NCBI GenBank assembly: GCA_000004985.1
Contig: GG738845.1
DNA: 64,000 bases
Direction: 5' to 3' (one strand)
Origin: Naegleria gruberi
Lineage: Eukaryota
This document shows, piece after piece, positions 10,513 through 43,203 of this stretch (the first letter of the stretch is position 1; the number at the start of each line of letters is the position of its first letter). The position numbers were made by a program, and so were the translations under genes. The notes under the pieces were generated by a model. That model did no database searches. It was not told where the DNA came from and worked only from the letters and a program-made list of their open reading frames with translations.

Positions 10513-11367
10513 ATGCAATTTTCAAAAGTTTCAAAAAAAATACAATTAAACATAATGATGCAACAACAGTCAACAACAACATCACAAGAGACCATAACAA
10601 CACCAACAACTTCCGATGCATTGTCACGAGATGAAATCGAATATAAACAGAAGGAAAAACAGCAACAATTCGATGAAGAAAAATCATTGACATCTCCGAC
10701 ATCTTTTACTACCACTACTTCTCAACAACAACAACAGAAGCAAACTTTGGACAATAAACAACAAGAAATTAATGAAAGTAATAAGACATTGAATAGTAAA
10801 GAATTATCTGGTCCTAATAAATCAAATAAATCGGAGAGTTTGGAGCATCCCATGTCTATCAAGGAATTTCTCAAGATTACAATTCTTCCTCGATGGTATT
10901 CAGTGCCCAACAAGGTGAGTGAAGCAAGAGATATGTTGGCAACAGTAAGTTTCACTCAGATGATGGAATTTTTAACTTTATAATAACAGGAAAGAACCAT
11001 GTTGAGTTGGTATAGAACTGCATTTTCAATTTTGGGTGTTGGAATTGCTGTTTCGAGGAGTAAGTTTCTATATATAAGAGTGTTTATATTGATTTATTGA
11101 TATATGATAGTGAAAAAATCTGATGGTTCTGTAATTCCAAAGGTTGTTGGAGCAATTTCATGTTCACTAGCTATGATTTTAATCATGTATGCTCATTTGA
11201 GATATTATGCAGTTATGAAATCTCTATTCGAATGTAAGTTGAAAGAGTTTTGTGTCTATATTAACTCGACAATAGATCACTTTTCTGCTGATACATTATC
11301 TCCTCCTTTCATTCTCCTTATTGGCTTGCTAATTTGTGTCATTGCTGTTCTTTTATTCTTTGTGTAA
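10513..11367 (+). CDS. DUF202 (YidH)-type three-helix membrane protein, paralog A, 4 exons: join(10513..10944,10990..11059,11111..11233,11276..11367)
   Basis: The motif RWYSVPNKVSEARDMLAT|ERTMLSWYRTAFSILGVGIAVSR is the conserved DUF202 signature. The introns are 45, 51 and 42 nt (GTAAGT/GTAAGT/GTAAGT donors, CAG/TAG/TAG acceptors), and the phases restore three hydrophobic helices. The first ATG is at 10513, since the tool's 10465 start is TTG. Confidence 0.65.
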
Positions 11368-11474: not shown

Positions 11475-12537
11475 TCAATTAACAAAGACAAGTGCCAAAG
11501 CAAGAATACACACAACCATTCCAAATAAAAACATGAAAGGAGGTGCAAATAAATCGGCCACATACATGCCACCAATCAATCGTCTTGTTGCGTATTGGAA
11601 TCGAATGAAAGAGTAAATGAAAATCAATAAACCCAAAATTACAAAAATTGTTCCAATAGAAACCATTAGAATTTTAACTTCTGCAGTATCAGACGAAGAT
11701 GTTAACACTAAAAAATCAGTACATGCATTCTCTTGAAAACTTACATTTGGAAACTGCAATACCAATTGCCACAATTGACAATGCAGTTCTAACCCAAGCT
11801 AATTGAGTTCTCTCCACAGCCAACAAATCTCTTGCTTCTGATTGTTTGTTTGGATGAAAGGTCCACCTAGGAATGAAACCCATTAAATAATCAAGAGAAT
11901 ATCTCTTATTGGATGATTGTCCTGTTATTGTAGATTCATCTTTATGATGTTGTTCCTTTTCCTCAGCTGAGGGTGACATTATAACGTCCTTCTTCTTATC
12001 AACATTAATATCTTTTAATTCAATTTCCATTAGCAAATCATCATCGGATTTTACCTCATCCGAAAGGTTATTACCACTTGTATGCATCATGACAGATCCT
12101 CCACATTGTAATTCTTCTTCTTGTGTTTCATCTAGTAATTGCAAGGATGCACCAGCGAGCTTTGATTTTGAAAAATTCATTCCTGATGATGGTGGTGGTA
12201 GTGAGGAGAAAGGTTGTAATTTTTTGTTTTCTTCTTGATTGATAATTGTCGTTATTGTATTGTCCATTTGTGTTTCATCCGATTTGGGAGTGGTTATGGT
12301 AATATCGATTATTGGCAATGATGATAATGAAGTATTGGATGCATGTTCTTCTGTTGATGATGGTAGTGATTGAGCGGCATTTTGCTTTGAATCTTCATCT
12401 TGTTGATGATGATTTATATTTGATAAGGAAGAGCTTAATTGCTCACTCCTCTCCACACTTCCTCCAAAACTCACAGACCTCTGCAAAATGGTATCAAGTC
12501 GGGGTGATGTTGTTATTGTTATTGTCGTTTGCGACAT
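11475..12537 (-). CDS. DUF202 (YidH)-type three-helix membrane protein, paralog B, 2 exons: join(11475..11707,11745..12537)
   Basis: RWTFHPNKQSEARDLLAVERTQLAWVRTALSIVAIGIAVSK|L|LTSSSDTAEVKILMVSIGTIFVILGLL... aligns residue-for-residue with paralog A. A 37-nt intron (GTAAGT...TTTTAG, phase 1) sits at exactly the same position as intron 2 of paralog A, and a long S/T/Q-rich N-terminal extension precedes the domain. Confidence 0.6.
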
Positions 12538-24279: not shown

Positions 24280-27200
24280 ATGTCACAAACACCCGGTGGA
24301 GTGGGCGTGTCGAATAATTCAAATCCTTCTACTACTCTTCTGGGTTCATCTTCTCAACAACAACCCACCGATATTAATAGTAGTTTGAATATTTTACAAG
24401 AAAAGATTATCTATATTGATGATGATCAGCCTACTTCTTCCGACAGCTCGGATACTCAACAACGAAAAAAACAAATTCAACAAGCAATAACGAATATATC
24501 AGAGTTTTTTATTTATTACTATCAACAAGAATGTAAATTTAATTTATTAGATTCATCAAGTGGTTCATCTAGCACTGCTACTGCTACTAATAATACAAAT
24601 AACTCTACATCCAACAATACAAGTAATAATAATTTGGAGATCTTTTATAAAAATGTTACAAATTTCTTAAATATATCTATTCAACAATTATTAAGAGGAT
24701 GTGGAGATGTGAGTGAATCCATTCGAACATTTTCTAATGAACATTTAAGAAAAGTGATCAAATCAGTAATTGATACACATTCCGATAGAGTATTAGTAAT
24801 TTTATTTAGATGTATGAAGCCTAAAGCAAATAACAAGTATAGTATAATAAGTGCAATTTCTAATTTTGCAAATATATCACATTATATTAAGCCACAAAAA
24901 TGTAGAACAATGGTTTCATTTATTTTACCACAATTAATACAATTTATATCTATGGAATTTGACTATTATTCAACTATATTAGAAAATATTATTATGAATG
25001 GTTCTCTAGATAAAATTTTTGATATTTTAGGACCATACATTGAAAGTAATGAAATTTATGATTTTTGTAAAGATTTGTACAAATTATTATCACACTCTGA
25101 AGTTGAAATTAGAAGAGCTTGTGCTAAATGTATTTCATCATGTTGTGCTTTTATTCCTTCCTGTCCTATTCATCAAATTGCTTTGGACATTTTCAATTTA
25201 TCAAATAATTGTTTTGATAGGAACCAAACAACAACAACAACAATACATGATAACATCACAAATAACCTTGATCCGACAACAACAACAACAACACCAAACA
25301 CCACTGCGAGTGAAGGAGTTAAAAAGATGAAAGCAAGTGAAAGTAATTCTAACATAGAATGTACAGATATTAAAACACTGCAAGGAATTTTAAACACCTT
25401 TCTAAATTTACTAGTAGTACTAGATGAATTGAAGACAAATAATATAGAATATCAAACCTATAGTAATATTATTTGTGATTTATTAATTGATTGTCTTACT
25501 ATTCAAGATCAGAGAATTTTATCACCTTCTATTGAATTATTAACTAATTTACTTTCAAAATTTAGTAATTATTGTAAAAATTGGAATAGAGGAAAGGTTA
25601 ATTCTTTACTTTCTAAAATAATATACTTGTTATCTGTTCAGAGTGTTCTTGTAACTGTTAAAAGTTATGTTTTAGAAACTCTACAACAATTTTTATACGT
25701 CTTTCCAGAATGGACATTAGATTCTTTCCAATCTAATGATTTTAATTTGAATTATTTGTTTAATATTTTAGATAATATCGAGGAAGATTATTTAATTCGT
25801 GGTAAATCTGCAATTTTACTTTCCACTATTATTGAAGTTTGTGTTAAATTGTCTCACAAAAATTTATATGAAAAAGTAATTCCAATATTTGACTATGAAA
25901 GTATTTTATCAATGCCACGTTTAATCGGAAAAGGATCAAATCCTATACTAGGTGGAAGTTCTGCTCACCATTTAATATTTTGTAAATTGAGTCAATATAT
26001 TATTGATAAGATCATGTCTATCATGATGAAGGAATCATTTAATCATTTATTAATTAGAATGTTAATTAATTCTTGTTCTAAGAGCTTACCTATTTGCTTA
26101 AGCTCATTGGGAGAATTATCTTTCCATATTCCAAAATATATTTTATCTATTATTCATGTTAATGACAGTTTTTGGGGAGTCAAGTTTGAAATTTTAAATC
26201 TTTTAAATAGATTTGATTATACTCTTATTGAATATTACGAGAGAAAGAATAATGAAACATCAATTTCATTATCAACACAACCACTTTTACAAATTATTGT
26301 TGATTTGATTTGGAAATATATTGGTGATGATAACGAAAAAGTTAGAAAGTTATCATGTATGAATTTAATTCAATTATTACCATATCCAAATGTAATGAAT
26401 AATATTCATGCTCAATTGAACACAAGTAATACTTTAACAAAAACATCATCACAAATGGTTTCTATATTCGAAAGATATTCATCTAATTATGATAATAGAT
26501 TATTGAAACAAATCATTTCATCAGATATTTTGAAATATAGAAATGTTATTAGGGATCATGAATTGACCAATGTGGTTCTTGTTATTACACGTTGTATTTC
26601 TCAATTGAGTCTTGTAAAGGATGACAAACATACTTTTATTGGTATTTTAAAGTTATTATCTTTAGTAGCAAAGAAATATTCCTATACTAATACTCATAAT
26701 TCTAATGTTAGTAACAGTAATAATAGTGTTTCCATGATTAAACCAGTTATTGCATACTACAGTATTGAAGTGTTAGAATTACTGTTAGACAAATTAAAAT
26801 ATTCATCTGAAATTAGTACAGATTTAAGCGTACACTCAATGATTATCAAGACAATGGGATTATATATTACTCAATTAAAACATTTAAATGAAGCCAAGGT
26901 CTTGTACATTACTGAGCATTTATTAGAATATGAACAATTTATGATTGATTTGATAACAAATGTTTTTGATGAACAGTACATTAAACAATTATCAACCATT
27001 CAATCAGAATACCAAAAACATATGCACAAATATGTTTATGACAAGCTGTATAATAACATTTATCAGTCAGCCAAGTCATCTATTAGTAATGCAATTATTG
27101 ATTCTACATATAGTAGAGATGCTATTTCTATTATGAGATATCAATTGTTAAAGACATTATACTATATTTTACTGAATGGATCACCATCATGCATTGAAAA

Positions 27201-30200
27201 ATACACAATTTCAATGATTCAATATTTGAATTTTAATGCTAGATATGAAAAGAAGTACTCCATTCTATGTATCCAAGAATTATTCGTCTCATTGTTTGGT
27301 AAAAAGGATAAATACTACAATCTTAATATACCAAGTTACGAAAACATGAAACCAGTGTTTATCAATGATGAATATGATGTTATTTCAAATAATGATGTGA
27401 AAAAGTCTAATGGCCTGTTCGACAAGATTTTTGTTGAAGGTAAAAAGTATTCTATCTATGCTAGAAGAGCAATGAATAGCGATTTGAATTCTAATAGAGT
27501 TAGAACTAGAAGTCTGCTAGTTCCTTATGGTGAATCTACTTCTCCTTCTAAAAATACAACTGGAACGACTGGTGGCGGTTCAAATACACCTTCTACCAAG
27601 AAGGCATTCAGTTATGATTCTCAATTTTTAAATACTGGTAAAACATATAGACAAATATTGGGAATGTTCAATCCTGTAGTGATTGGTTTAACAAAATATT
27701 TCAAACACACTCATGACCGATCATTACAAAATGTGGTTTTATTCATGTTAATTAGAATGATTTGCATTGGAATAGATTTTAGTCAATTGGATAAGGATTC
27801 AACATTCATCAAGTTTATTTTTAATCAATTAGAAAAGTTTGACGAACCTGACTTTGTTTTATATCAAATTATGGACTTTTTGTCTGTTTTATTGTTTATT
27901 GTCAAATACCAACATTTCCCTGAGAATCCATTTGATTCTATTGTAAAATTAGTTCAATCAACATTCAATAGCTCACAGTTTGAAAAGAACGGAAATTCAA
28001 TTTTAAAGTCAATTTCACCTGTAATGATAAGAGGTTTCTTATGTGAAATCAGAACTGAAAAAGTTGAAAAGAGTTATGGTAACTTGATGCTGAATGAATT
28101 TTTGAAAAATGTAACCTTACCAGAATGTCAATCTGTATTGACATTGCTATTAAGAAATGTTCATCATTCAACTTTAACATGTTCAAACACCAATAATACT
28201 ACTGGTAATGCCTCATCAAGTAGCAATAGCAACAATACATCATCAAAGGATGCAACATCACTTCCGTGGATTGAATTATCAAATTCTATTCTTAAAGAAT
28301 GGGTTGTTAAACATAATTTACAGGTGGATGTAGATTGGAATTTAATATCAAACATTTCTAACCATTTCCAAACAAATAACATTGCTACCACTTATTATAA
28401 TCACACTGTAAATTCAAATAGTGGAGGTTTAACATCAAACTCATCTGCTTCAAATGGAAATCAATCTATGAATTTGAAATCCAATCTTGTTTTCCAAAAT
28501 AGATGTAAAAAAGAAAATGTTCAATATGAGTTTAATAATTGTGAATTTATAATTGAACTTTCTAAAATATTTTATTTCATTGATGCATTGTACATTAATA
28601 TTAATGACCAAGCAAAGATTGTAACTCACTTGATAGATTCTTTTGATGAACATTTAGATCAAAATTCTCTTGAAAAACAAGTTCAAACACCTTCCTCAGT
28701 TCAACATAAGGAAAATATGAACGAAAAGTTGAGTGTTATTAATAGCTTGCTAAAGTCCTTGATATTTATGAAACTCTTGAATAGAATTGATAAGAAACAA
28801 GCTAACGTGCAAGAAAATTTAAAGAATCTTGAAAGGTTTTTGCAATCAATTTCAAATGCATTGAATTTATATTTGAATCATAGAGACACTTCCTCGATTA
28901 TCGTAATCAAGTATTTAACTTGTGAAATGTTGACTGTCACAATAGAATTACAAGAGAGATTGTATATCAAGTTGTTGACACACGAACATGTACGACAATC
29001 TGATCATTTGAATTCCATTTTCCATAATCAAATTTTGCACATTTTGAAATTATTTAATATTAACTACCTCAAACATTATGATTTTACAATTTATACTTTG
29101 TTGTTCTCACTTTTGCTTGCTCATTCAAAGGTAGAAAAACAATTTGGAGTTTCATTCTTGAATTATTTATATGGTTTTTATCACTCTAATATTTATAACT
29201 TTAATATTTTGAATAATACCCAATTATTATTAGGCATTAATGAAAGTATTGCATCCGATGAGAATAATTTAACATATCATGAATTTGTAATTCAACAAAA
29301 ATCAGTTTTCCTCAGTATGATCAACATAATTGTAAATTATCAAGATAATATCATTGAATTATTCAAACAATGCGAAATTAATAATCTATCCAATCGTATT
29401 TGGAAAGAAATATTCAATCACTTTGATGAGCCATTAATAGAAAAGTTTTTGGAAAAGTTCTGTAGAGATATTTGTTGTGAAAATGATCTAGTCGGATTAT
29501 TTGACGAATTGAATGATAAATTCAAATCCCAACTACATTTAAACGATTTGAGAATTCTATTTAAGTTTATTAAGAATAATATTAAAAAAGAACATTTAAT
29601 TTGGTTGCATCCTAAGATTGTCAACCAATTGGAAGAAAGATTAAAGATTGAAACTACATTTATGAAAAGAAAAGTTATATCTGATATGATTAAGTATATT
29701 AATTCAAATATTGAAAAGCCAAATGAAAATTCAAAATTAAACCAAGAATTCAAAAACTTGGATTTAATTTTAGAAAAGGTTAAAAATGAAATGTTTAAGA
29801 ATCAAAATGAAATTCCTCCATCAAAATTAGTTAATAACTTTTTCACCTATAACAATTTAGTTTCTAATCCATTAGTAATTTCAAACTTCTTAATTGAATA
29901 TATGGATAAAAATGAACTTAAATATGTTCCTAGTATAGTTAGCAATTTAAATATTCAATCAATTAACAACATTCTAGTACATTTCAAAGATAACGTTGAA
30001 TTTATAACATCATTATTAATTCATTTGAAATCTAAAGAACAAATTTTACCTTTTATTGAATTTACGTTCAATGAATTGAATAATATTCCATATAACTTTA
30101 CAAGTTATTTGAAATTATCTAATTTATTATCAAAGTTACTATCAAAATGTAGATCATCAAATGATTTAATTCAATTATATGATAAGAATATGGTTATTAA

Positions 30201-33200
30201 TTTTACAATTAATTTTATTGAATTATTTTATTTGGAGAGAATTCAAAAACATAATGTTGATATTACAGATGTTGATTATATTTTATCGTTAATTTTACAA
30301 ATTTTGTATTCGTTTGGTAATTCTATTGAATATTATTCTGAAAATTTATTATTAATTTTAAATAATCCAGAAATAGATTTAAATTTGAATACTAATAATA
30401 CTTCATCTAATACTACCAAAACTACTACAAGTACTGTGGAAGAAACTAAGAATACTACTCTATTATTAATGGAAGATGATTATGTTGATAGCTTTGCAAC
30501 AACAACAGAGGAACCAACTGAACAAGAACCACAACAAGAAGATCAATCACCTAACAAGGAGACTAACAATTCTATTTTAGAAATGAATGAAGATGAAAGA
30601 AGGGTACTAAAATTCATCAAATTATCATGTCAATTAATAATTGATGCCACAAGCGTTTCATCACAATCCATCAATTACAATAAGGATATTAATATTTTGA
30701 AATATTTAAAGTTGATTCTATTCAAAACTTTCCAATTATATCCAAATATGCAAGCTTCTAATGAGGATAGTGATATTTATGGAAGTGTTGGAAATACTAC
30801 ATCCTTGTACGGATTTTCTATTGGTAATAGAATACCATTTATTTCATATCATCATTTGAAGTTGATTAGATCTATTGGTTTGGAGCTTTCTAAATGTTTT
30901 ATTAATTTAGTATATGATCCATATTTACCAAACATGGAAACACAATATTTCCCTAGAATTGATATAGAACAAGTTCAAACGTTAATTTTCATGATACAAG
31001 AAATAGGTTGCAATGAAGAAATATTTAAGCAATTGTTCGAAATGAGTTTTGATTTGCTCAAGATGGAAATTACTCAACCATTTGATGAAATTCATGTTTT
31101 ATTTATCAAATTGTTGACATGTATGATATGTAGAATGAATCAACCTCCGTCCCTATCCAATAACTTTTCATCCAATATATTATCATCATTTGATAACTTT
31201 GGAAATTCACTTCTTGGAATCCAACATGGTGGTAATAATTTGAACTCCATTTTGAACTCTGTCGAAAAGTACTTGTTAAAATCTACTGGTTCAACAAATA
31301 GTAGTGGTACTAGTGGTTCATTCACTGGTGGTATTGGAACATCAAATAATAGAAACAGTTTCAATGGAAGCTTTGGTAACATGAGTAATTTAATTGATAA
31401 GAATAGTAATACTACTAGACAGAGTATTAGTGTTGAGGAAATTTATTCCAAAGCACTTTTTAACAGCTTCATGTTATTTATTCATGATAGCATCCAAAAA
31501 TTCAGTAAGAATAACTTGATGATTACAAAAGAATTGGTTAAATCACTCATTCTTATTATGGAAAACAACATTGTATTATTTGCTGTTAATAATGGTACTT
31601 ATTCAGTTCAATGGTTGCACGAATTATTTAAAAACATTTATAAGGAATGTAATTTATACGAAGATTGGATATTAGGACAATATGCTCTATATGGTTTGAG
31701 CAAAACTTATGCCATTCTACATTCAAATAATGCCAAAGATGTCAATGAAGATTTTATCATCAAAACAATGGAATCATCACTTGTTAACAATCATTTGAAA
31801 CAATCTGCATTACAATCAGTTTTATCATTTATTGAATGTGGAAATAGAAATATTGTATTGAAATTACTTCCTTATTTAGCAAGCAATATTCAAACATGGT
31901 TATTAGATAAGGAACAAACTGTTTATAATCAATTATTATTGATGAAAATGGTAACTCAAATGGTACAACAATATCCTGAAGCATCTGTTCACCAATTGAC
32001 CAAAAAGACTATGGAATCTTTATTCAATTTATCAGATGATATTGACGCTCCTTTAACTATTGTCGTCACCATCTTTAAATCTTTACAAAAATTATTAATT
32101 AATTATTCACTTTCTCAATTTGAAAGATCTTTAATTGAAGCCATGACAAGTATTAAACAATCTACAATGATCACCAGAAATGATAATACCAATGCAGTAA
32201 CTAATAGGAATGATGCTGGAATGATGAACAAAATTGTTACTCCGTTCAAGAAGATGACCATTGATACTTCAACATTTAGTAATTTCACACAAATGTTAGC
32301 TCAAAATAAGACCATGTTAATTAATAGAAAGTCTACTGCTGGTTCTATGCAATCGAGCAGTAATACTGCGACTGTTAATACATCCAGTTCAACTTTACCT
32401 TCTAATAAGACAAATAATAGTTCTAGAATTAGTACTGAGAAACCTTCAATTACAGCCACAAGTAATAATATCAGTATTACTGTTGGAAGTGGTATTCCTA
32501 ATTCTACTACCAACACTGCATCATCTTCTGTAGCACCAACAAGTAATAACAATACAGCAACCACCAAGATGAAACAATTCATGAGTTTCTTCACAACTAA
32601 GAAGCAAACGACTCCTCCAACGAGTTCTACGACAACTACCACTCCTGCCGTTAACCAACCATCATTAACTCCACCAACTAATCCTACTTCTGGCTCATTA
32701 ACATCATCTCCAAGTCTTTCATCACTTCCAATGAGTAGAAGTATGAGCATGACATCGATTGTATCAAGTATGGCAAGATCAAGTGAAAAATTACAAACTC
32801 TCTCACAGACAAGAAGAGTTTTATTACTTGGATTAATGTCAACTTCAATGTATACATCATCATGCTCAACACAACAACAATTAGATTCACAAAGAGAACG
32901 TGCTAAAGTTAATATTTTACATTTAATTGAACAATTCCACGATGGTGAAATTGATAGAGAAGGTGAAATTATTTTAAGATTTATTCCACAATTAATGGTA
33001 GATTTCTTTGACAATGAGCAAATATTACCATTATTATATAACGAATTTTTGAGCTCTAAAACCCATCCACTGCTGTTATCATTACTTTTATCACTTCACA
33101 TGCCACATTCTTTGAATGATAGAAAAGTGTTTGAAAATTGGATCACAATGAGTATGCAAACGCTTTGTTTGAAACAACCAACATGTGGAGCATTGTGGGC

Positions 33201-33534
33201 ATTAATGTGCTTGTTTATTAGTGTTTGTATTGGTGAATTTGACCATCACTATGCAACACTAGTTTACTTTGGATCAAATTATGGACTTGTACATGAATGG
33301 AATGATATCTCTTCACATGCTTTCCTTTTATATGGATTAATATTTTATAATTATTTATCAAAACATGAAATGGATGGTGCCATTAATGTTTTTAAGAATG
33401 TTGTTCTTCCTCAATTGATTCAAGATTCAAAAGATCAATTAATTTATGTTAAATTATTGAAATCTTTACTATTTTTGATTAATTCAAACAATGGAGCAAC
33501 TTTACAAACCAAGTCACTTGAGGATTTCTTTTAA
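24280..33534 (+). CDS. htt: Huntingtin orthologue (3084 aa, single uninterrupted exon)
   Basis: The size matches metazoan and Dictyostelium huntingtin. The C-terminal blocks FIPQLMVDFF / ENWITMSMQTL / ALWALMCLFISVC align with the human HTT C-terminus (ILPQFLDDFF / RDWVMLSLSNF / ATWSLSCFFVSAS). The repeat architecture is HEAT-like throughout, and there is no long polyQ. Confidence 0.85.
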   Translation: MSQTPGGVGVSNNSNPSTTLLGSSSQQQPTDINSSLNILQEKIIYIDDDQPTSSDSSDTQQRKKQIQQAITNISEFFIYYYQQECKFNLLDSSSGSSSTATATNNTNNSTSNNTSNNNLEIFYKNVTNFLNISIQQLLRGCGDVSESIRTFSNEHLRKVIKSVIDTHSDRVLVILFRCMKPKANNKYSIISAISNFANISHYIKPQKCRTMVSFILPQLIQFISMEFDYYSTILENIIMNGSLDKIFDILGPYIESNEIYDFCKDLYKLLSHSEVEIRRACAKCISSCCAFIPSCPIHQIALDIFNLSNNCFDRNQTTTTTIHDNITNNLDPTTTTTTPNTTASEGVKKMKASESNSNIECTDIKTLQGILNTFLNLLVVLDELKTNNIEYQTYSNIICDLLIDCLTIQDQRILSPSIELLTNLLSKFSNYCKNWNRGKVNSLLSKIIYLLSVQSVLVTVKSYVLETLQQFLYVFPEWTLDSFQSNDFNLNYLFNILDNIEEDYLIRGKSAILLSTIIEVCVKLSHKNLYEKVIPIFDYESILSMPRLIGKGSNPILGGSSAHHLIFCKLSQYIIDKIMSIMMKESFNHLLIRMLINSCSKSLPICLSSLGELSFHIPKYILSIIHVNDSFWGVKFEILNLLNRFDYTLIEYYERKNNETSISLSTQPLLQIIVDLIWKYIGDDNEKVRKLSCMNLIQLLPYPNVMNNIHAQLNTSNTLTKTSSQMVSIFERYSSNYDNRLLKQIISSDILKYRNVIRDHELTNVVLVITRCISQLSLVKDDKHTFIGILKLLSLVAKKYSYTNTHNSNVSNSNNSVSMIKPVIAYYSIEVLELLLDKLKYSSEISTDLSVHSMIIKTMGLYITQLKHLNEAKVLYITEHLLEYEQFMIDLITNVFDEQYIKQLSTIQSEYQKHMHKYVYDKLYNNIYQSAKSSISNAIIDSTYSRDAISIMRYQLLKTLYYILLNGSPSCIEKYTISMIQYLNFNARYEKKYSILCIQELFVSLFGKKDKYYNLNIPSYENMKPVFINDEYDVISNNDVKKSNGLFDKIFVEGKKYSIYARRAMNSDLNSNRVRTRSLLVPYGESTSPSKNTTGTTGGGSNTPSTKKAFSYDSQFLNTGKTYRQILGMFNPVVIGLTKYFKHTHDRSLQNVVLFMLIRMICIGIDFSQLDKDSTFIKFIFNQLEKFDEPDFVLYQIMDFLSVLLFIVKYQHFPENPFDSIVKLVQSTFNSSQFEKNGNSILKSISPVMIRGFLCEIRTEKVEKSYGNLMLNEFLKNVTLPECQSVLTLLLRNVHHSTLTCSNTNNTTGNASSSSNSNNTSSKDATSLPWIELSNSILKEWVVKHNLQVDVDWNLISNISNHFQTNNIATTYYNHTVNSNSGGLTSNSSASNGNQSMNLKSNLVFQNRCKKENVQYEFNNCEFIIELSKIFYFIDALYININDQAKIVTHLIDSFDEHLDQNSLEKQVQTPSSVQHKENMNEKLSVINSLLKSLIFMKLLNRIDKKQANVQENLKNLERFLQSISNALNLYLNHRDTSSIIVIKYLTCEMLTVTIELQERLYIKLLTHEHVRQSDHLNSIFHNQILHILKLFNINYLKHYDFTIYTLLFSLLLAHSKVEKQFGVSFLNYLYGFYHSNIYNFNILNNTQLLLGINESIASDENNLTYHEFVIQQKSVFLSMINIIVNYQDNIIELFKQCEINNLSNRIWKEIFNHFDEPLIEKFLEKFCRDICCENDLVGLFDELNDKFKSQLHLNDLRILFKFIKNNIKKEHLIWLHPKIVNQLEERLKIETTFMKRKVISDMIKYINSNIEKPNENSKLNQEFKNLDLILEKVKNEMFKNQNEIPPSKLVNNFFTYNNLVSNPLVISNFLIEYMDKNELKYVPSIVSNLNIQSINNILVHFKDNVEFITSLLIHLKSKEQILPFIEFTFNELNNIPYNFTSYLKLSNLLSKLLSKCRSSNDLIQLYDKNMVINFTINFIELFYLERIQKHNVDITDVDYILSLILQILYSFGNSIEYYSENLLLILNNPEIDLNLNTNNTSSNTTKTTTSTVEETKNTTLLLMEDDYVDSFATTTEEPTEQEPQQEDQSPNKETNNSILEMNEDERRVLKFIKLSCQLIIDATSVSSQSINYNKDINILKYLKLILFKTFQLYPNMQASNEDSDIYGSVGNTTSLYGFSIGNRIPFISYHHLKLIRSIGLELSKCFINLVYDPYLPNMETQYFPRIDIEQVQTLIFMIQEIGCNEEIFKQLFEMSFDLLKMEITQPFDEIHVLFIKLLTCMICRMNQPPSLSNNFSSNILSSFDNFGNSLLGIQHGGNNLNSILNSVEKYLLKSTGSTNSSGTSGSFTGGIGTSNNRNSFNGSFGNMSNLIDKNSNTTRQSISVEEIYSKALFNSFMLFIHDSIQKFSKNNLMITKELVKSLILIMENNIVLFAVNNGTYSVQWLHELFKNIYKECNLYEDWILGQYALYGLSKTYAILHSNNAKDVNEDFIIKTMESSLVNNHLKQSALQSVLSFIECGNRNIVLKLLPYLASNIQTWLLDKEQTVYNQLLLMKMVTQMVQQYPEASVHQLTKKTMESLFNLSDDIDAPLTIVVTIFKSLQKLLINYSLSQFERSLIEAMTSIKQSTMITRNDNTNAVTNRNDAGMMNKIVTPFKKMTIDTSTFSNFTQMLAQNKTMLINRKSTAGSMQSSSNTATVNTSSSTLPSNKTNNSSRISTEKPSITATSNNISITVGSGIPNSTTNTASSSVAPTSNNNTATTKMKQFMSFFTTKKQTTPPTSSTTTTTPAVNQPSLTPPTNPTSGSLTSSPSLSSLPMSRSMSMTSIVSSMARSSEKLQTLSQTRRVLLLGLMSTSMYTSSCSTQQQLDSQRERAKVNILHLIEQFHDGEIDREGEIILRFIPQLMVDFFDNEQILPLLYNEFLSSKTHPLLLSLLLSLHMPHSLNDRKVFENWITMSMQTLCLKQPTCGALWALMCLFISVCIGEFDHHYATLVYFGSNYGLVHEWNDISSHAFLLYGLIFYNYLSKHEMDGAINVFKNVVLPQLIQDSKDQLIYVKLLKSLLFLINSNNGATLQTKSLEDFF

Positions 33535-33577
33535 ATAAAGAATTTGTGTTTGCTTTTTTTCTTGGGCATAGATTAAT

Positions 33578-33625
33578 TTTCCAAATAACAAACACAAACA
33601 ACACTCAATTCATAGAAGAAAATTA
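33578..33625. repeat. Short dispersed repeat (ttttccaaataacaaacac...actcaattcatagaagaaaat); second copy at 34492..34533
   Basis: A visible match of about 45 bp between the two loci inside the htt-downstream gene desert. Confidence 0.4.
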
Positions 33626-34305
33626 CAAAATATTTATGCACCAAATAGAAAGAACAAGCTTTAGAATTTGAAATTTCAAAAGAAAATGATTTTGGTGCTT
33701 CGTTTATGTCTTTTTCAAAATCAATTAGAGATTTATTTTAATCCTTTGTTAACTTTCTTTGTATTTATAAAATCTCCTTTAAAATTTCTTCTTAATAATC
33801 AACCTACCCTTCTTATAAATTTAATCTCTTTTAACAAACCAGCGTCCATTATTAAGAATCATTTTTTCAAAACAGACCCATATGAAAAACACAAATGGTT
33901 TGCTTATTCTTTGTTTTCCCCTGTTATTTTCGAGAAAATATATATTTTAGTTGGAATGTAGTTTAAGAAACCGTTAGAATAGAATTATGGTTCTATTGTG
34001 TTATTGGTAAAATAAAACGGTAATACTAAGGTTTGAAAAATAAGATCAAACTTGATCAATGAACAAACTTTCAAAGACGAATAAATTTAGTCTCTTCATA
34101 ATAAGTTTGATCGTAAAGATTGATAAATATTTCTTCATTTCCAAGACCAAACATTCTGTGGCCTAATATATTTGGTGGTTCAGTTAATAATTAGTTACAA
34201 AAACAATAATTTGCACTGAAATATATTGTAAATCCATTTTAATAACATAAAACCAATAATGGTGCATTTTGGATTTAGATTTTTTCCCAATTTGTTATTT
34301 CATTC

Positions 34306-34473
34306 AAAAAGAAAATGCAAAAACATTCATTGGTCAACACTTTTGATAAATTATTATTCAAGTTTAATGGTTGTTTTATATTGGATTGTCAGGAAATTCT
34401 TTTAATTCATAATAACAGTACAAAATTATTGTCCTACCAAAATACTACAACAAGTAACAATTATCAAATCCGA
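34306..34473 (+). repeat. Direct repeat copy 1 (about 170 bp, about 80% identical to 35456..35628); carries the start of an ORF MQKHSLVNTFDKL...
   Basis: It reads aaaaagaaaatgcaaaaacattcattggtcaacacttttgataaatt...ttggattgtcaggaaattc...aattatcaaatccga. Confidence 0.6.
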
Positions 34474-35455
34474 AAGAAAGTAGTTATTGATTTTCCAAAT
34501 AACAAACACTCAATTAATAGAAGACAAAATGAAAGAAATAATTTTCCAACAAATAACTGTAACACTTTATCATCAAGTAACCTGTTGCTTCTGAGTATTC
34601 AAAGATATCAGAGAATAGGAAATGATGAACGATTGAAAATAATTATTCAACATACATATACTAAGATGAATGATTGTGGTGTATGTTATTATCGAAAAAG
34701 AAACCAAGTTCATCAATTAATGATTCATGTAATTGAATTATTGTATTTGGTTTTAAAATTACAACCCAATACCAACCTCTACAAACATTATTGTTCATTG
34801 ATAATGCTAAATCCATTCTCGCTTCAAAAGTCAAATTTGAATAGTCATTAATATAATAGCTTCGATGTTTCATTCTGATTTTTTCAAATTCTATTTTATT
34901 ACTGATAATACAGGATCACAATACACAAGTTTACCTAATTTTTGTAAATGGAAAGGTAAAAAATTAAGAAAATAGTTTTTTGTGTTCATGTTTTTCATAA
35001 ATTAATAATTACTTTTCAACGTTTCAGTTTTCTTTTTATTTTTACTTTAGTTTTTTCGAATGTCTTTTCCAGTTTAGATGAAGATTTATTTTGTACAAAT
35101 TGGGAACTCTTATTGTAAAAAGAAACTCAATTCTATGTTTCGTGTTTAGATTAAGACTGAGTTATTATGTTCAAATGTGGAACTAAAAAACACAACAATC
35201 CTGCATAGGTATGAAATTACTTTCTTCTGGAGAAGAAATAAAAGTTCCAGGATTGTAAAGAGGATAAAAGATTATTCGTATATTCTTATTGAATTATATT
35301 GTTGCTCAGTAATATACAATAATCTTAGATAATCCACTTCTTTCATCAAAATCCATATGGATTCAAAATATTCAAAACATGCAACCACAACCAGTTTCCA
35401 TCGATTTATATATTCCCAATATCATTGACTTTCATTTAAAAAAAAGCAAGTTTGG

Positions 35456-35628
35456 GATTGAAAAAGAAAATGCAAAAACATTCATTGGTTAACACTTTTG
35501 ATAAATTATTCAAGTTTAACTTGAATATTTTTATATTGGATTGTCAGGAAATTCCATTAATTCATAATAATAATACAACATTATTTTCTTACAATAATAT
35601 TACAAAAACAAACAATTATCAAATCCGA
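35456..35628 (+). repeat. Direct repeat copy 2, immediately followed by the GC-rich palindrome
   Basis: It has the same 5' sequence, including the ATG-initiated ORF start MQKHSLVNTFDKL..., and diverges from copy 1 at ...caaatccga. Confidence 0.6.
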
Positions 35629-35775
35629 GGGGATGGAAAATCCTCGATCCAAATCCCACGCTTTGCAGATGGATTGTTGGATCCATCCGCAAAGCCAAAA
35701 TATCGTGTGATGTTGTGGATCCTGTTTGGCGGAGGAGCCGCGTGGGATTTGGATGGCGGATTTTCCATCCCCTCG
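35626..35775. repeat. GC-rich nested inverted repeat (36-nt arms 34/36 complementary, 78-nt spacer containing a second 14-nt hairpin)
   Basis: The left arm cgaggggatggaaaatcctcgatccaaatcccacgc (35626-35661) is the reverse complement of the right arm gcgtgggatttggatggcggattttccatcccctcg (35740-35775). The inner pair is ctttgcagatggat and atccatccgcaaag. GC is about 55% against about 25% in the flanks. Confidence 0.7.
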
Positions 35776-36044
35776 TGTAAAGGAAATTCCTTACAAACTC
35801 TCCAATACTATTTACTATTGGTGGGATCTAATAAAATTCTTTTTTTTAAATAATTTGGATTCTTTAAAAGAAAATTCAATTTTGCAAAGTTAATTATTAT
35901 TAATTAATTTATTATATTATACTATACACTTGTAAATAAGGTGAATAAAAACTCAATAATTCAAAACATTGACAAATAAACATGTGAAACCTTTCTACAA
36001 ACTATATTCATTGAAATTTTCAATTTATTTCTAATATTTACAAC

Positions 36045-36656
36045 TTAATCTTCATGAACTTCAACAGTAGACAGTGGTCTATCAACTCTCTCCTCAGTTC
36101 TTTCATTAATATTCTCCTCTTGAACCAATCTCAATTCATAATAATAATTTCTCACTCCCCAAATAAAATTAAACAATAAAAACACAGTAACCAATGCAGT
36201 ATACTCATATCTAATACTCTTATAATAGAAAGTTTCAACAATGTAATGAGTAATTGAAATACAATCAGCAAATAGAGTGTAACCAGTGAGCATTCTATTC
36301 TTCTCAATACTTGCAGTATAAAGATTCATAAAACCAACAATAAAACCCAAGATTGCAGCTGATCTTTGTAAATGATCATTTCTTCCTTGACGTGAAAATC
36401 CAAAGAAAATGTCAGCATGTAAAACACTTGTCAATGTGTCAACATAGAGAAGTGTTGCATTGGCAATGAATGCTAATCCAATAATAAATAAAGAAGTGTT
36501 GAAAATTCTCCTTCCTGGAAAGTACATTTGCCTCAAACCCTTTTTCAATTTGTTTCTTTCATCTGATTGTTCAACATTAATTTGTTTATCAGAAATTGAC
36601 TTGTTTAGACTGCTACTACCACTTGTTCTTTGATCAATAAACTTGGATTCTACCAT
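36045..36656 (-). CDS. Hypothetical four-pass membrane protein (203 aa)
   Basis: It has an ATG start, four hydrophobic helices (SLFIIGLAFIANATLLYV, AAILGFIVGFMNLY, LTGYTLFADCISITHYIV, ALVTVFLLFNFIWGV) and an acidic C-terminus. Confidence 0.5.
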   Translation of the reverse strand: MVESKFIDQRTSGSSSLNKSISDKQINVEQSDERNKLKKGLRQMYFPGRRIFNTSLFIIGLAFIANATLLYVDTLTSVLHADIFFGFSRQGRNDHLQRSAAILGFIVGFMNLYTASIEKNRMLTGYTLFADCISITHYIVETFYYKSIRYEYTALVTVFLLFNFIWGVRNYYYELRLVQEENINERTEERVDRPLSTVEVHED

Positions 36657-37022: not shown

Positions 37023-38139
37023 TGTCGCTTTTTCTTTCTGTTGCTTTTTACTACTATTTGATTGTTTGTTGGATTTTACAAAGAGTGATGGAGCTGTTTG
37101 GGATGTGGAATTGTGCGATTTGTTTTTAGAAATCGATTGATTGATTTACCACATTGACTTGTTGTTGGTATTTGAAATTATTTACATTAAGATGGAAAGG
37201 TGCTGAGGTGTGGTGTACATGATGATGTGTTTGTTGAGAAGATGCTCTATTGAGATATTGAAGAAGAAGTGGACAATTTTTGATGATAGGTTGTGGAAGT
37301 ACGAGTATATGTGTATCATTGTTCATGTTATTCAACACTGATTGGATGGAGGGTAGTTTTTCAATAGTACATGAATTGGACATGCTGCTAATATTGGTTT
37401 GATTGAGGCGATTCGATGGATGTACCACATGCAAGCAACATGAATCATGTAAACAAGGATCTTGTTGAGGATGAAAAGGATTCTGAACTGAGGATGTATA
37501 TTGAACAGTATGTAGAAATGGAACCCTAGCAGAATCAGCTCCCTCACTATTTTTCATTGCTATTAATCAGGTCAAATATTGTTGTTTTTTCTCTAATCAT
37601 TCAAGATCATTCAAAACACCAACCCAAGTCTCTGTAAATCCTCATTGGTTGGCCGCTTAATTGTTAACAAATAATAAGCTAATGATTGGATTGTGAACCC
37701 GGTACCAACACTAAATTGTCCAGATAAGGTGTTTGGTGGACAAATGTAAAAGTTTGATCCTACAAACATTTAATTTCAAGTAAATACATTTTTCCTAATA
37801 AGCAATTACTGAAAATTAAGGAGGCAGAGAATCGTTTTTATGGCGTTTTTAAAATTGTAGTCGTAAATGATAACAAGCGCTGATCTTTAAAGTTTGAGTC
37901 TTACTAAAATCCAAAGCACATTTTGAGGTCAACCAAGGTCATCATTCCAATTTCCTAATTTGTCCTCTTGAACAATACAAAATGAAAACGATTATTTATT
38001 TAATGCTGTCGTCTTCACTTATTCAACGTTGTAACATTACCAATCGATTATCATCGATTTATTATGATGATTTTTCATATCTCTCGGAGTAAGTTTGTAA
38101 CTAATCACACATTCATGCTTTTTTGATTTTTTAAATTTG

Positions 38140-41100
38140 ATGAGACATTTTAAAAGAAAAATGCGACCTCACCAGCCTCCCACACATCTTCAAATTCCTT
38201 CCCAGCACACCCATCATCATCAACCCCAACAACAACAATATACCACCTCCTCGCTCAATGTTCAACATCCATCATCAACCAGTAGTAGTAGTAGTGGGCA
38301 TCATATGGATCGCATTGTTTCTCCGTCAAGTCCTCGAGTTAATACAAACAAACCAACCTTTTCTACTTCCTCCTCTGCCTCCAATCTTCAACAAGCCTTT
38401 TCATCATCCAATAATAACAATAATAATAACAATATAAATATTTCCTTTGAAAATGTTCAAGAGGAAATTATTACAGTACCACTCTCACAAGAATTAATTC
38501 AAGTCTATCAGAAACAACTCTTTGAATGTATACAAAAATTAAAACAAACACACACCGATGGTAAAGATAAAGCCAAATCACTTGAACAAATTATTTATTT
38601 AGCATGTACATTAAAATCTGATTTTACTATGGCTCTCTTTGGAGAGTATAACAAGTCAACAAACAATCAGCAACAACAAAATGATAAAACAACCTCATCC
38701 TCTTCTGCTAGTTCTACTATGAATGGTGCCAATAATAATTCATCAACAACAACAGGACAATGGACCTACTCCCCACAATTAGATTTATTTATTAAATGTA
38801 TGAGATATTTGTTATTACATAGAAGTTCATATATTAGATCTCTAACAGTAAGATGTATGAGATATATAATACAAAATGATCCTTGCAATTTTCCATTTGA
38901 ATTATTATGGACAAAATATAATTGTCACTTGTTAATATTTAAAATGATGTTAAATGATACAGATAGAGAAAAGATTCAAGTATTGGAATTAATTAGAACT
39001 CTATGTAACAATTTTGTAAAAAGAAAGCAATCAAAACAATCCTATTTTGCACCTCCTCAACATGAAATTCAAATACCCTTCTTATTTATGAAGGGAATTG
39101 TTCACTTTTTAAGTTATATTGATGGAACTCTATTACAAATGGAGCAACAACAACCTCAACTGCAACAACAACAATTAAACTCTCGATCAACAACTGCAAC
39201 AACAACTGCAACTGCAGGACAAGGTGCCAACAATGGAAACACATCAACTGCAGGTAATAATAGTAATACTAATACAGCCACAACTAATAATTTAAGTAGT
39301 AGTGCAAATGATCAAAAGAAACAATACTTTTTAGAATCATATAAATCAGTTTGTATTGAAATATTGAGAGATAGTTTAATTCATGATGAAAGTTTATGTA
39401 GTACAATTATCAAATGTGGTGGATTTAAATATCTTGTTGAATTATTGTTAAATAACAAATTTTCAACTTATCATAACAGTATTCTATCAAGTATTTTATT
39501 TATTTGTGATAGATATAAAACTAGAAAGTTTATGAAAAAAGGTTTATTACAATTATTATATTTAATTTCACCTTTTACAAATTACAGTCAATTATATCAA
39601 CCACTTTTAGATGCTATTAATAATGCCAAAGTAACAAATCCAAACTTGGTACAACAATTAACAAATGATCTAAATCAATTAGTATTAGAATTAGAAAGAA
39701 GTAAAAATATTATACTCTTTTTAATGAGATCATGGACTGGTTTATTTATAGTCAACCAAGACAATATTAATATTTTAGGTACCTTATCAAACTTGTTAAA
39801 ATCACCAAATAGAACACAGTTGAAACATTTAATATTGGATTTATATATTGAAATTTTAAAACAAAGTGCACCTAGCAAGTATCATTATTTAATTCCTCCA
39901 GTTTTTAGTGAATGCGAAAGAAAATCCAAGTCATCTACTTCTACCAATGCATCTGGTACAACAGGTAGTGGTACCACTACTAGTGTACCTAATGGTGCTG
40001 GAGGTACAACAACAAGTGGTGCTGGAGGTGGTACCGCTATTGGTTCATCAAGTTCTGCTTTAAATACTAGTACAAGTGCTATACTCTCAACTTCAGCAGC
40101 TTCATCAATTGTACATGGTGGATTTAGTAATGATGTAACATTTTATGCAGATCACTCAGGAGATGAAGATCGTGTTGTGAATATTTGTTTTGTTTTCTTG
40201 TCAATGACAATTTTAACATTAATTGACAGTGGATTGATAGATTCTTTATTATATTTATCAAAACAATCAATGATTAATAACAAGAAAAAACAAACTAAAA
40301 ATCTAGATCCAAAAGATAAATTGAATATCAACGATGATGACGACGAAGATAAAAGTGAAAGAGCGTTTATTAGTTTCAGAGCAAGTCAATTATTACAATC
40401 AGTTTTATTATTTAGTGACATGTTATTGAATAAGAGAACATGTTTAAATATGCAAGATAGATTTGATACAGAAATTGCTAACTTTTTACTTTCTATTACT
40501 AAGAGTAATTTGTACAGTTACAAAACATTGAGCATGTTATCTGCATTTTATCAACAATCTTTCCAATCTTCAAATGTGACTGGAGGTTCAATTCATGTTG
40601 ATCAAGCAATGATTCAAGCTCCAGCTAATTTAAGTGTTTTATCTGATAGCACTCCAGCATCATCAGACTCTATTGGAGATAGATTCTCTAAATTTAGTAC
40701 AACAAATATTCCAACATTTTATATCAGAACTCAAATTGATAGTGATATGGATGATCAATCATTTAATCAATTGATTAAAGAGTCTAATGTACTTGTGACC
40801 AAAGACCCAAAGAGATGGAATTGGGAAAAGATTTATTGTTTAATATTTGGTCCATTGAGAGTTGCTCATAGATTGAAAGAAGTTACAACAAAATCACAAA
40901 AATTGCTAAAAAGAATACTCTCCTACTTTAAACCTTACAAGAGAGCTTTTAGTGACTTGAAATATCAAGAAAGTAATTTTGGTTATACAAAATTATGTAA
41001 TGAATTGTTGTACAATTTACTTCACATGGATGAAAGTGGTATTGAAATTATTAGAGAATGTAAAATTATTAAGCAATTCTATGAAGTATTGGAAATTGAA

Positions 41101-43203
41101 GTTAGAGTTGGTAAAACAACAAGTGTTGGAGGTAGAAATGATCCAAAACCAATTGACTCTGAAAAGAGATTATTGAGTGAAGAGCGAGTACAAAAATACA
41201 TGGTTAGAGATTACTTTACAATCATTGGATTGATGAGTAGTACAATCAAAGGAAAAGAATTATTGGAAGAAGAGAAAATATTTGATGTTCTCAAGGATTT
41301 AACAACTAGAAGAGATGATATTTCACAATTGATTATCAAACATTTAGATTATACAAGACCATTCTCTGATAGAGCAAGAGAAATATTAAAAGAAGCAATG
41401 ATGAATGGTTCAAATATTATCAGATATATTAGTACATTATTTATTAGACATTTAATTAGACAATCTCAAACCTATCCAAATAATTTCCATGCATGGGGTG
41501 TCCCTCTATTGACAAGCAAATTATATGATGATTGGGAAAAGGTTAAATTTTCTGCCATTTCAATTTTGAGTGAAGTTTGTTGTATGAACATGTCTTCAAA
41601 TTCGAGTAGTGCTGGTGATTCATCCTCAACATCAGATTTTGAATACGATGATTCAGCAACATCCATGCTCTCATCACCAAGAGTTTCAAGTGGAAGTAAT
41701 GAAAATTTACTTGCATTCGTATCACAGAACATTTCACGTGACGTGATGGAGAGCGTCATGAGAGAGGGACGTGATGGAATGAATTTACTCTTGAAAATGA
41801 CAAGTTGTAGAGAAGGTATTGATTATCTTTCACATGATAGTATTAGATTATTACAAGAATTAGTTGAAGATTGGTTTGAACGTGAGTCTTATCAATACTT
41901 ACAACAAGTTGAATATGGTTTAAATAGATTTTATAATATGAATCAATCTGCTCCATCCAATACTAGCTATTCTCCAAGTTCAACAACTGGTCACACCACA
42001 ATTGGAGGATCGCAATTAGTTGTCGGATCTTTATCACCATCTGGATTTAGAGAAACTGGAATGGCATCACCAACATTTAGGTCATCCAATCAAGCACAAT
42101 TCCAAAGCTTGAGTGGGTCATATGACTATGCTAAACATGGTGTAATTTTACAAAGTAATTTATATGGTGAATTATGTCATACACTAGAAGGATGTACAAT
42201 TTTAACAAATGACAAACATAGAACATTACATTGTTTGTGTATGAATTTATTGAATGTTTATCAATCTGTTTTAACATATCACAATAATATTGCTAATAGA
42301 TTATCAAATAGTAACGACAGCAATATTGAACCACAAATTGAACAAATTGTTGAATTGTGGTCATTAGCATTCTGCTGTAGTACAAATACAGGATATGAAT
42401 ATTGTAACAGATATATTCAACAAGTTATTATTGGATATGAAAAGAATCAAAATGAATCATTCCAAACTGCAGGTGATGAACAATTTACTGTTGTTCAATA
42501 TTTTGTTTACATTGCTTTACATAGTAAGGACATTTCATTAAGAGGTACAACATTATACTTGTTGGGTATTTTATCTAAATGTAGTTTAGCTAGAAAAGAT
42601 TTATTCGAAATTGGATTTGAATGTTCATATCGTTATGCTATTTCAATTCCAAGAGATAGAAAGAGTTTCTTTACCATTATTACTGATAATTCATCTTCTA
42701 ATGAATCAACAGGTAAAAATAACACTTCTTCAACAAGTAATCATCACCATCATCGTAAGGATGATTTTGATGAAGATGATTACTTATTAACATCAATTTT
42801 GAAAGAGTCACCAAAGAATGCAGATTTGATCAAGGATCTTGTATCAAATGTAACAAAAATTGCAAATCCAGTTCATGAGCAACAATCATCAACAAATTTG
42901 CAAAATCTCAAGACAAATATTGCACGAGTTTTGACAAATAATGAGAAATCTAAATTAATTTATTACTTTTTAGGAAATCATTTCACCCACTGCAAATACA
43001 AATGGAAGATTATCAAGTTTGTAATTAATGACCTTTTGGGTGGTAATAGTAGCATGCTTTGTTCATCTATTGCAACATCAAACGATTCTGCATTCCCTTC
43101 ATTTGATCCAAATGTTGAAGATGAACTCTATGTTATGAATACTCATTTATTGTGGTTAGATACTGAAACAGATTTGAAAATTAACAAATTACAACAACAA
43201 TAA
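38140..43203 (+). CDS. Rictor orthologue (TORC2 subunit; Pianissimo-like), about 1687 aa, single exon
   Basis: The C-terminal conserved block NLYGELCHTLEGCTIL...ISLRGTTLYLLGILSKCSLARKDLFEIGFE aligns with human RICTOR HLYGQLVHHKTGCHLL...LSIRGTCVYVLGLIAKTKQGCDILKCHNW. The N-terminal Rictor-like ARM/HEAT region (LWTKYNCHLLIFKMMLND...) is also present. The first ATG is at 38140, since the tool's start at 38137 is TTG. Confidence 0.75.
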   Translation: MRHFKRKMRPHQPPTHLQIPSQHTHHHQPQQQQYTTSSLNVQHPSSTSSSSSGHHMDRIVSPSSPRVNTNKPTFSTSSSASNLQQAFSSSNNNNNNNNINISFENVQEEIITVPLSQELIQVYQKQLFECIQKLKQTHTDGKDKAKSLEQIIYLACTLKSDFTMALFGEYNKSTNNQQQQNDKTTSSSSASSTMNGANNNSSTTTGQWTYSPQLDLFIKCMRYLLLHRSSYIRSLTVRCMRYIIQNDPCNFPFELLWTKYNCHLLIFKMMLNDTDREKIQVLELIRTLCNNFVKRKQSKQSYFAPPQHEIQIPFLFMKGIVHFLSYIDGTLLQMEQQQPQLQQQQLNSRSTTATTTATAGQGANNGNTSTAGNNSNTNTATTNNLSSSANDQKKQYFLESYKSVCIEILRDSLIHDESLCSTIIKCGGFKYLVELLLNNKFSTYHNSILSSILFICDRYKTRKFMKKGLLQLLYLISPFTNYSQLYQPLLDAINNAKVTNPNLVQQLTNDLNQLVLELERSKNIILFLMRSWTGLFIVNQDNINILGTLSNLLKSPNRTQLKHLILDLYIEILKQSAPSKYHYLIPPVFSECERKSKSSTSTNASGTTGSGTTTSVPNGAGGTTTSGAGGGTAIGSSSSALNTSTSAILSTSAASSIVHGGFSNDVTFYADHSGDEDRVVNICFVFLSMTILTLIDSGLIDSLLYLSKQSMINNKKKQTKNLDPKDKLNINDDDDEDKSERAFISFRASQLLQSVLLFSDMLLNKRTCLNMQDRFDTEIANFLLSITKSNLYSYKTLSMLSAFYQQSFQSSNVTGGSIHVDQAMIQAPANLSVLSDSTPASSDSIGDRFSKFSTTNIPTFYIRTQIDSDMDDQSFNQLIKESNVLVTKDPKRWNWEKIYCLIFGPLRVAHRLKEVTTKSQKLLKRILSYFKPYKRAFSDLKYQESNFGYTKLCNELLYNLLHMDESGIEIIRECKIIKQFYEVLEIEVRVGKTTSVGGRNDPKPIDSEKRLLSEERVQKYMVRDYFTIIGLMSSTIKGKELLEEEKIFDVLKDLTTRRDDISQLIIKHLDYTRPFSDRAREILKEAMMNGSNIIRYISTLFIRHLIRQSQTYPNNFHAWGVPLLTSKLYDDWEKVKFSAISILSEVCCMNMSSNSSSAGDSSSTSDFEYDDSATSMLSSPRVSSGSNENLLAFVSQNISRDVMESVMREGRDGMNLLLKMTSCREGIDYLSHDSIRLLQELVEDWFERESYQYLQQVEYGLNRFYNMNQSAPSNTSYSPSSTTGHTTIGGSQLVVGSLSPSGFRETGMASPTFRSSNQAQFQSLSGSYDYAKHGVILQSNLYGELCHTLEGCTILTNDKHRTLHCLCMNLLNVYQSVLTYHNNIANRLSNSNDSNIEPQIEQIVELWSLAFCCSTNTGYEYCNRYIQQVIIGYEKNQNESFQTAGDEQFTVVQYFVYIALHSKDISLRGTTLYLLGILSKCSLARKDLFEIGFECSYRYAISIPRDRKSFFTIITDNSSSNESTGKNNTSSTSNHHHHRKDDFDEDDYLLTSILKESPKNADLIKDLVSNVTKIANPVHEQQSSTNLQNLKTNIARVLTNNEKSKLIYYFLGNHFTHCKYKWKIIKFVINDLLGGNSSMLCSSIATSNDSAFPSFDPNVEDELYVMNTHLLWLDTETDLKINKLQQQ

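Follow-up and report, generated by a model that had tools for sequence, protein, structure and literature searches.

The 64-kb stretch of Naegleria gruberi DNA analysed here (64,000 nucleotides, referred to as the window) carries a huntingtin-like open reading frame on the plus strand with its stop at position 33534 and a convergent Erg28-like open reading frame on the minus strand with its stop at position 36045. The 2.5-kb gap between these two stops contains a 150-bp GC-rich hairpin-forming segment at positions 35626–35775, referred to here as the palindrome. An earlier sequence-only reading had placed it in a gene desert, which is overstated; the surroundings are a gap between convergent genes that also holds a family of small, coding-like open reading frames. 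The genes nearest to the palindrome are the following.

24280–33534, plus strand: huntingtin open reading frame, labelled by Pfam
36045–36656, minus strand: open reading frame of the Erg28-like protein, labelled by Pfam
37126–37557, minus strand: second minus-strand open reading frame before RICTOR
38137–43203, plus strand: RICTOR open reading frame, labelled by Pfam

Pfam also labels FancD2, a P-type ATPase and others among the neighbouring open reading frames, and every Pfam-labelled open reading frame in the 64 kb is an ordinary cellular gene. Three open reading frames of the window are identical to N. gruberi RefSeq proteins situated on one 1.56-Mb scaffold, i.e. RPC4 (XP_002683346.1), an RFC subunit (XP_002683342.1) and XP_002683344.1. 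With huntingtin, RICTOR, FancD2 and RPC4 as neighbours, the palindrome thus lies in nuclear DNA of this AT-rich amoeboflagellate. The Erg28-like open reading frame appears to be unannotated, since a search with it returned no N. gruberi protein. At the loci of its orthologues in N. fowleri (three assemblies) and Willaertia magna, neither the palindrome nor a comparable one is present; the gene neighbourhood differs in both species and synteny is not conserved. Elsewhere in the window, an inverted repeat at 10921–11067 and 11737–11838, with arms of 79 nt (73% complementarity) and 20 nt (95%), links the ends of a plus-strand open reading frame (10465–10983) and a minus-strand open reading frame (11716–12537). 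This may be an inverted partial gene duplication.

The palindrome is divided into four segments, none of which is assigned to a strand.

35626–35661: left arm (terminal inverted repeat), CGAGGGGATGGAAAATCCTCGATCCAAATCCCACGC, with ATCC at 35640, 35647 and 35653 and GGAT at 35631
35660–35695: inner hairpin, with arms at 35660–35674 and 35681–35695 and a 6-nt loop
35696–35739: rest of the core, weakly structured
35740–35775: right arm, 34/36 complementary to the left arm, with GGAT at 35745, 35751 and 35758 plus a terminal ATCC

Recomputed pairing bears out the anatomy that had been read from the sequence by eye: the outer arms (35626–35661 and 35740–35775) are 36 nt each, 34 of the 36 positions (94%) are complementary, and a 78-nt core lies between them. 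The outer stem has 34 Watson-Crick pairs and no G.U pair; its two mismatches, T.C and G.G, lie close together and are not of the G.U type. An inner hairpin with 13 of 14 positions paired had also been claimed. The hairpin is present but the count differs, as its arms are 15 nt long and complementary at 14 of 15 positions. Folded alone, the inner hairpin gives z = −5.7. Its single mismatch, A.C on the plus strand, becomes a G.T pair on the minus strand and is the sole hint of strand asymmetry. The remaining 46 nt of the core show no clear structure (z = −2.1).

Folding, one of the checks proposed by the sequence-only reading, was done on a 170-nt stretch that includes the whole palindrome. The energy is −97.2 kcal/mol for RNA (z = −10.6) and −53.6 kcal/mol for DNA (z = −10.2); none of 200 shuffles folds as stably. 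When the whole window is shuffled 20 times, the longest inverted repeats (at most 2 mismatches, within 400 nt) are 17–23 nt, compared with the 36 nt observed. The palindrome is real and statistically exceptional. It folds equally well on both strands, and this symmetry, together with the lack of G.U pairs, points to an inverted repeat at the DNA level rather than to an RNA stem under selection. As DNA it can extrude as a cruciform, and if transcribed it can form a long dsRNA-like hairpin.

The palindrome also stands out in composition. Its GC fraction of 0.527 compares with 0.249 and 0.271 for the adjoining 1 kb on either side and about 0.30 for the window, in agreement with the earlier estimate of roughly 55% against 25%. 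GC content changes at the very ends of the palindrome, giving a sharp boundary, and the GC-richest 100 nt of the 64-kb window are situated inside it. The tetramers GGAT and ATCC are found 14 times within its 150 nt, whereas 150 nt of the window hold 1.06 on average and the next-best place has 6. They are present in both orientations and cluster in the arms; the right arm carries three GGAT spaced 6–7 nt apart and the left arm mirrors these as ATCC. Reiterated motifs of this kind resemble the subterminal binding repeats of DNA transposons, a likeness drawn from general background.

There is a single TA dinucleotide in the palindrome and, with both strands counted, a single stop-type trinucleotide (TGA), which is located at 35696–35739. 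Five of the six reading frames are stop-free, a state matched by only 6 of 3000 dinucleotide-preserving shuffles in a test that was devised after the fact. The open frames appear to be mainly a by-product of the reiterated motif, as the base after GA is nearly always T, and the base after TG nearly always G.

The left end of the palindrome adjoins a direct repeat. Positions 34302–34473 and 35457–35628 show 87–96% identity, and the first of these copies does not have the palindrome; a direct repeat of about 170 bp, of which the other copy is palindrome-free, had been noticed earlier and is real. A third relative is found on an ENA metagenome contig (L006). The relevant segments are as follows.

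34302–34535, plus strand: copy 1, the reference "empty" copy, within the 178-aa open reading frame 34315–34851; it reads ...ATCAAATCCGAAAGAAAG... with no palindrome
35457–35628, plus strand: copy 2, truncated to 172 bp, with the first 53 codons, MQKHSLVNTFDKL...NNYQIR
203–742 of the 893-bp contig L006: third family member, P0001, a 179-aa open reading frame

The family thus has three visible members, i.e. the open reading frame 34315–34851 (178 aa), the first 53 codons of the open reading frame 35470–35853, and P0001. Their first 159–162 nt are 87–90% identical, the three indels among them are each 3 nt long, and the differences are skewed to codon position 3 (0/4/12, 3/6/11 and 3/8/8). An open frame of 178 codons is not reached in any of 1000 shuffles of the intergenic DNA. 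What is conserved is a 53-aa N-terminus (MQKHSLVNTFDKL...YQIR); the C-terminal parts of the members are unrelated. Pfam gives no domain match and the family is unannotated. The 3-nt indels, the position-3 bias and the improbably long frames indicate that these are probably real or recently dead genes, as judged from the aligned sequences. The earlier statement that the open reading frame 35452–35853 is unlikely to be a real gene broadly holds across the palindrome but not for the first 53 codons, which seemingly belong to a genuine family of small open reading frames.

A 23-nt motif, ATTxATTTTCCAAATAACAAACA, is found at window positions 33572–33595 and 34486–34509 and at positions 44–66 and 377–399 of L006. 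In L006 it flanks the repeat unit as a direct repeat, and the unit directly follows the huntingtin 3′ flank (window 33553–33596 and L006 25–68 are 95% identical over 44 nt). The same huntingtin-flank site is "empty" in the window, where the repeat unit is situated 0.9 kb further on. This arrangement suggests gain or loss of the repeat unit by recombination between copies of the 23-nt motif. The sequence upstream of the unit is present twice in L006, at 72–163 and, as a partial copy some 730 bp further downstream, at 803–877, so that units seem to be reiterated locally in that organism.

The palindrome starts at the point where copy 2 loses homology to the two palindrome-free copies (window position 34473 and L006). 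Copy 2 meets the palindrome at ...ATCCGA followed by GGGG, and the homology ends at ...ATCCGA. It ends, then, within the first three bases of the palindrome, so CGA is common to both sequences and the junction has a 3-nt overlap. Beyond ...ATCAAATCCG, the similarity between copy 1 and L006 runs on downstream for about 55 nt, and it also extends further upstream. On the right side, the 125 nt that follow the palindrome have no significant similarity to the sequence downstream of the empty site in copy 1 (a score reached by 160 of 500 shuffles), and a blastn comparison of this right flank with all loci fetched, among them L006, produced no match in L006.

A target-site duplication, which the sequence-only reading had named as a feature to look for, does not appear at this locus: with boundary shifts of −4 to +6 and lengths of 2–10, no duplication of 3–10 bp is found at any choice of boundary. 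The sole duplication that fits is CG/CG, which is ambiguous because CG is self-complementary and cannot be distinguished from the palindrome itself. Elements of the hAT type are expected to leave an 8-bp duplication; here the best 8-nt comparison agrees at 4 of 8 positions. The terminus of the hAT element Ac, CAGGGATGAAA, resembles AGGGGATGGAAA of the palindrome. From these comparisons, the left junction reads as an element set against an empty site, and the right junction fails to restore the target. With no duplication, and with a right flank that is not homologous to the empty site, simple insertion is not demonstrated.

These features taken together are best fitted by a solitary insertion of the MITE or foldback type, or a relic of one, and the palindrome is tentatively read as such, at somewhat less than even confidence. 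The evidence that this reading fits best is the GC boundary, the 36-bp inverted repeats, the 150-bp size, the GGAT motifs and the left breakpoint at two "empty" paralogous sites. Earlier, a MITE or foldback element, a structured non-coding RNA and a recombination hotspot had been offered side by side. The first of these is the best fit, and the signatures that would prove it are missing where they were tested. The segment would be a discrete, compositionally foreign piece of DNA built like a small non-autonomous foldback or MITE-type element, with a non-coding 78-bp core that holds a hairpin of its own. It may have been brought in by transposition through a transposase acting in trans, which would recognise the arms and the GGAT repeats, and a later deletion or rearrangement would account for the missing duplication and the non-homologous right flank. 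Such an element would have no cellular function today, and the palindrome is probably inert.

Compared with known MITEs, the palindrome is similar in its terminal inverted repeats (36 nt, 34/36), its small non-coding length (150 bp, with no Pfam match in any frame), its short motifs in both directions and its strong hairpin potential. It is also gene-proximal, intergenic and next to an "empty" paralogous site. It differs in that it shows no target-site duplication, no partner transposase and no second copy in the collections searched, and it is about twice as GC-rich as the host DNA, while MITEs mostly have a GC content equal to or lower than that of their host. MITEs are normally multicopy. 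Membership in this class is thus short of demonstration, owing to the missing duplication, the unrelated right flank and the failure to find other copies. The GC clusters and GC-rich palindromes of AT-rich organelle genomes, such as yeast and Neurospora mitochondria, are likewise GC-rich, hairpin-forming and sharply bounded in AT-rich DNA, but they are organellar, shorter and highly repeated, while the palindrome is nuclear and has been seen once.

Relatives of the palindrome were sought at both the nt and the aa level. Within the 64-kb window the arms are unique, even when up to 3 mismatches per 17 nt are allowed, and there is no transposase. About 15 billion proteins, including the annotated N. 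gruberi proteome, were covered in six frames and contain no second copy; the queries were the open reading frame through the palindrome and the other frames concatenated, along with a HMMER scan of 1.84 billion representatives. Recovered by these searches were the family member P0001, P0011 (which is XP_002683341.1, from the same locus) and three weak bacterial matches. The latter are repeat proteins, one of them a Calx-beta protein, and are regarded as noise, their total scores being inflated by internal repeats. A 26-base arm pattern and a gapped pattern of the two termini found nothing in JGI metagenomes or in IMG/VR, and in GTDB genomes they gave one Acidobacteriota contig only. This contig is not a copy, as it has just the two 12-nt termini in common with the palindrome and unrelated coding sequence between them. 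A 17-mer from the arm hit five loci in IMG/VR, all of them chance matches of 17–27 nt and none with the second arm. Sensitive blastn against plasmids, phages and E. coli showed no match to the palindrome, and full-text literature searches gave nothing relevant on the arm sequences or on Naegleria MITEs, transposons or small RNAs. A gene finder has made the palindrome into an exon, yet the resulting peptide is present, in whichever frame, in no other predicted Naegleria protein; this is a weak and indirect indication of low copy number in N. gruberi.

The main rival to the MITE or foldback reading is a break-repair junction. The palindrome would be older than copy 2 and would have acted as a fragile site, cleaved as a cruciform or hairpin, into which a 172-bp fragment was copied as templated filler from a source 1.15 kb upstream, with CGA as the 3-nt microhomology at the join. 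Breakage is known to be frequent at long palindromes. Copy 2 holds just 172 bp of a longer unit, as copy 1 and L006 continue in both directions, and the sharing of CGA between the family sequence and the palindrome, the right flank unrelated to the family and the lack of a target-site duplication are all consistent with such a repair. However, a 3-nt overlap is expected by chance at about 1 in 64 junctions, the left boundary of the fragment displays no clear microhomology, and the origin of a 53%-GC, GGAT-rich palindrome is left unexplained. Break repair is rated as unlikely.

Somewhat more doubtful is that the palindrome is a hairpin-RNA gene, whose transcript would either be processed into miRNA-like or hpRNA small RNAs or serve as a structural non-coding RNA, visible as a GC island against AT-rich DNA. 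In AT-rich genomes RNA genes are classically recognised by such islands, the RNA fold is strong (z = −10.6), and the inner mismatch becomes a G.U pair on the minus strand, on which the Erg28-like gene is encoded. A check against Rfam, also proposed at the outset, was made with Rfam 15 over the whole window and gave no match at the gathering thresholds. The best sub-threshold match, and the sole weak one, is to MIR847, a plant miRNA precursor hairpin (27.7 bits, E = 0.004), but this is far under the threshold of 184 and nothing else matches. In addition, a 36-bp stem that is free of G.U pairs and symmetric between strands is atypical of selected structural RNAs. Hairpin small-RNA loci and MITE-derived miRNA precursors have a long near-perfect stem of the kind that can be processed by Dicer-type enzymes, and the palindrome has this as well; it differs in its branched apical region, in Rfam scores far below thresholds and in showing no conservation.

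The Rickettsia palindromic elements (RPEs), palindromic repeats found in frame inside genes, offer another comparison. Like them, the palindrome falls in the range of about 100–150 bp, is stop-free, has a length divisible by three and is incorporated in a predicted protein; its 150 nt correspond to 50 codons and the open reading frame 35452–35853 reads through it. RPEs, however, are multicopy and occur in many bona fide genes, whereas here the host is a eukaryote, the open reading frame is a truncated duplicate, and the six-frame searches find the peptide only in XP_002683341.1, at this same locus. By analogy, RPE-like elements could insert within coding sequence or beside it and then be read through or become exons. 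It is improbable that the palindrome is the first seen member of a eukaryotic family of stop-free, GC-rich palindromic mobile elements analogous to RPEs, or else a hairpin-RNA gene that yields small RNAs. If either were true, the GGAT motif and the depletion of stops on both strands would be functional features and not by-products.

XP_002683341.1 (EFC50597.1, NAEGRDRAFT_45319) is annotated as a 3664-aa protein and begins as a huntingtin-like protein. It exits the huntingtin open reading frame at ...HDGEIDRE, continues with DGLLDPSAKPKYRVMLWILFGGGAAWDLDGGFSIPSCKGNSLQTLQYYLLL and then with RICTOR. The exon concerned is given below; its coordinates were derived by locating the peptide and AG/GT splice sites on the DNA.

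About 35669–35819, plus strand: RefSeq coding exon of XP_002683341.1, peptide DGLLDPSAKPKYRVMLWILFGGGAAWDLDGGFSIPSCKGNSLQTLQYYLLL

This exon consists of the right two-thirds of the palindrome and 45 additional nt. The model omits the end of the huntingtin open reading frame and treats the minus-strand open reading frames 36045–36656 and 37126–37557 as intronic. XP_002683341.1 is thus a prediction artefact, a chimera of huntingtin, palindrome and RICTOR. The palindrome looks "coding" to gene finders because it is GC-rich and stop-free, which gave rise to the false exon. It was also considered as an intron or "introner", and this was rejected since the left end and its vicinity have no GT.

The peptide read through the palindrome (GDGKSSIQIPRFADGLLDPSAKPKYRVML) aligns with conserved positions of bacterial Calx-beta repeats at 37–48% identity. 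The best single stretch is 31 bits, a score for which thousands of chance matches are expected in a library of 2.4e11 residues (calculated from score and library size), and there is no Pfam Calx-beta match; no other Pfam family matches any frame of the palindrome at E ≤ 10 either. The likeness is therefore regarded as chance amplified by repeats. The RefSeq use of 35669–35819, the five open frames and the Calx-beta alignment could be taken to mean that the palindrome is a genuine exon, in one variant a horizontally acquired Calx-beta coding fragment, or an assembly or cloning artefact might be suspected. With a chimeric RefSeq model, no similarity to E. coli or plasmid DNA, and flanks of ordinary Naegleria sequence, an artefact or a true exon is very improbable.

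Least probable is a relic, left after integration, of a viral or plasmid hairpin terminus or replication origin (a parvovirus-type T-shaped repeat, or a rolling-circle origin with iterons): from background knowledge, an outer stem around a smaller palindrome, GGAT in the stem at 6–7-nt spacing, a size of about 150 nt and GC richness all fit, but a T-shaped terminus would have two inner palindromes and adjacent viral genes, whereas here a single inner hairpin reaches significance, the second half of the core lacks structure (z = −2.1), the neighbours are ordinary cellular genes, and neither IMG/VR nor the phages gave a match.

Whatever its origin, the palindrome has a consequence for annotation. 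XP_002683341.1 can mislead comparative work on both huntingtin and RICTOR, and, more generally, gene finders can be misled by a GC-rich, stop-free palindrome in an AT-rich genome. If the palindrome is a mobile element, as tentatively preferred here, it would document a MITE or foldback family in a heterolobosean amoeba and would be a marker of recent genome dynamics near huntingtin and RICTOR.
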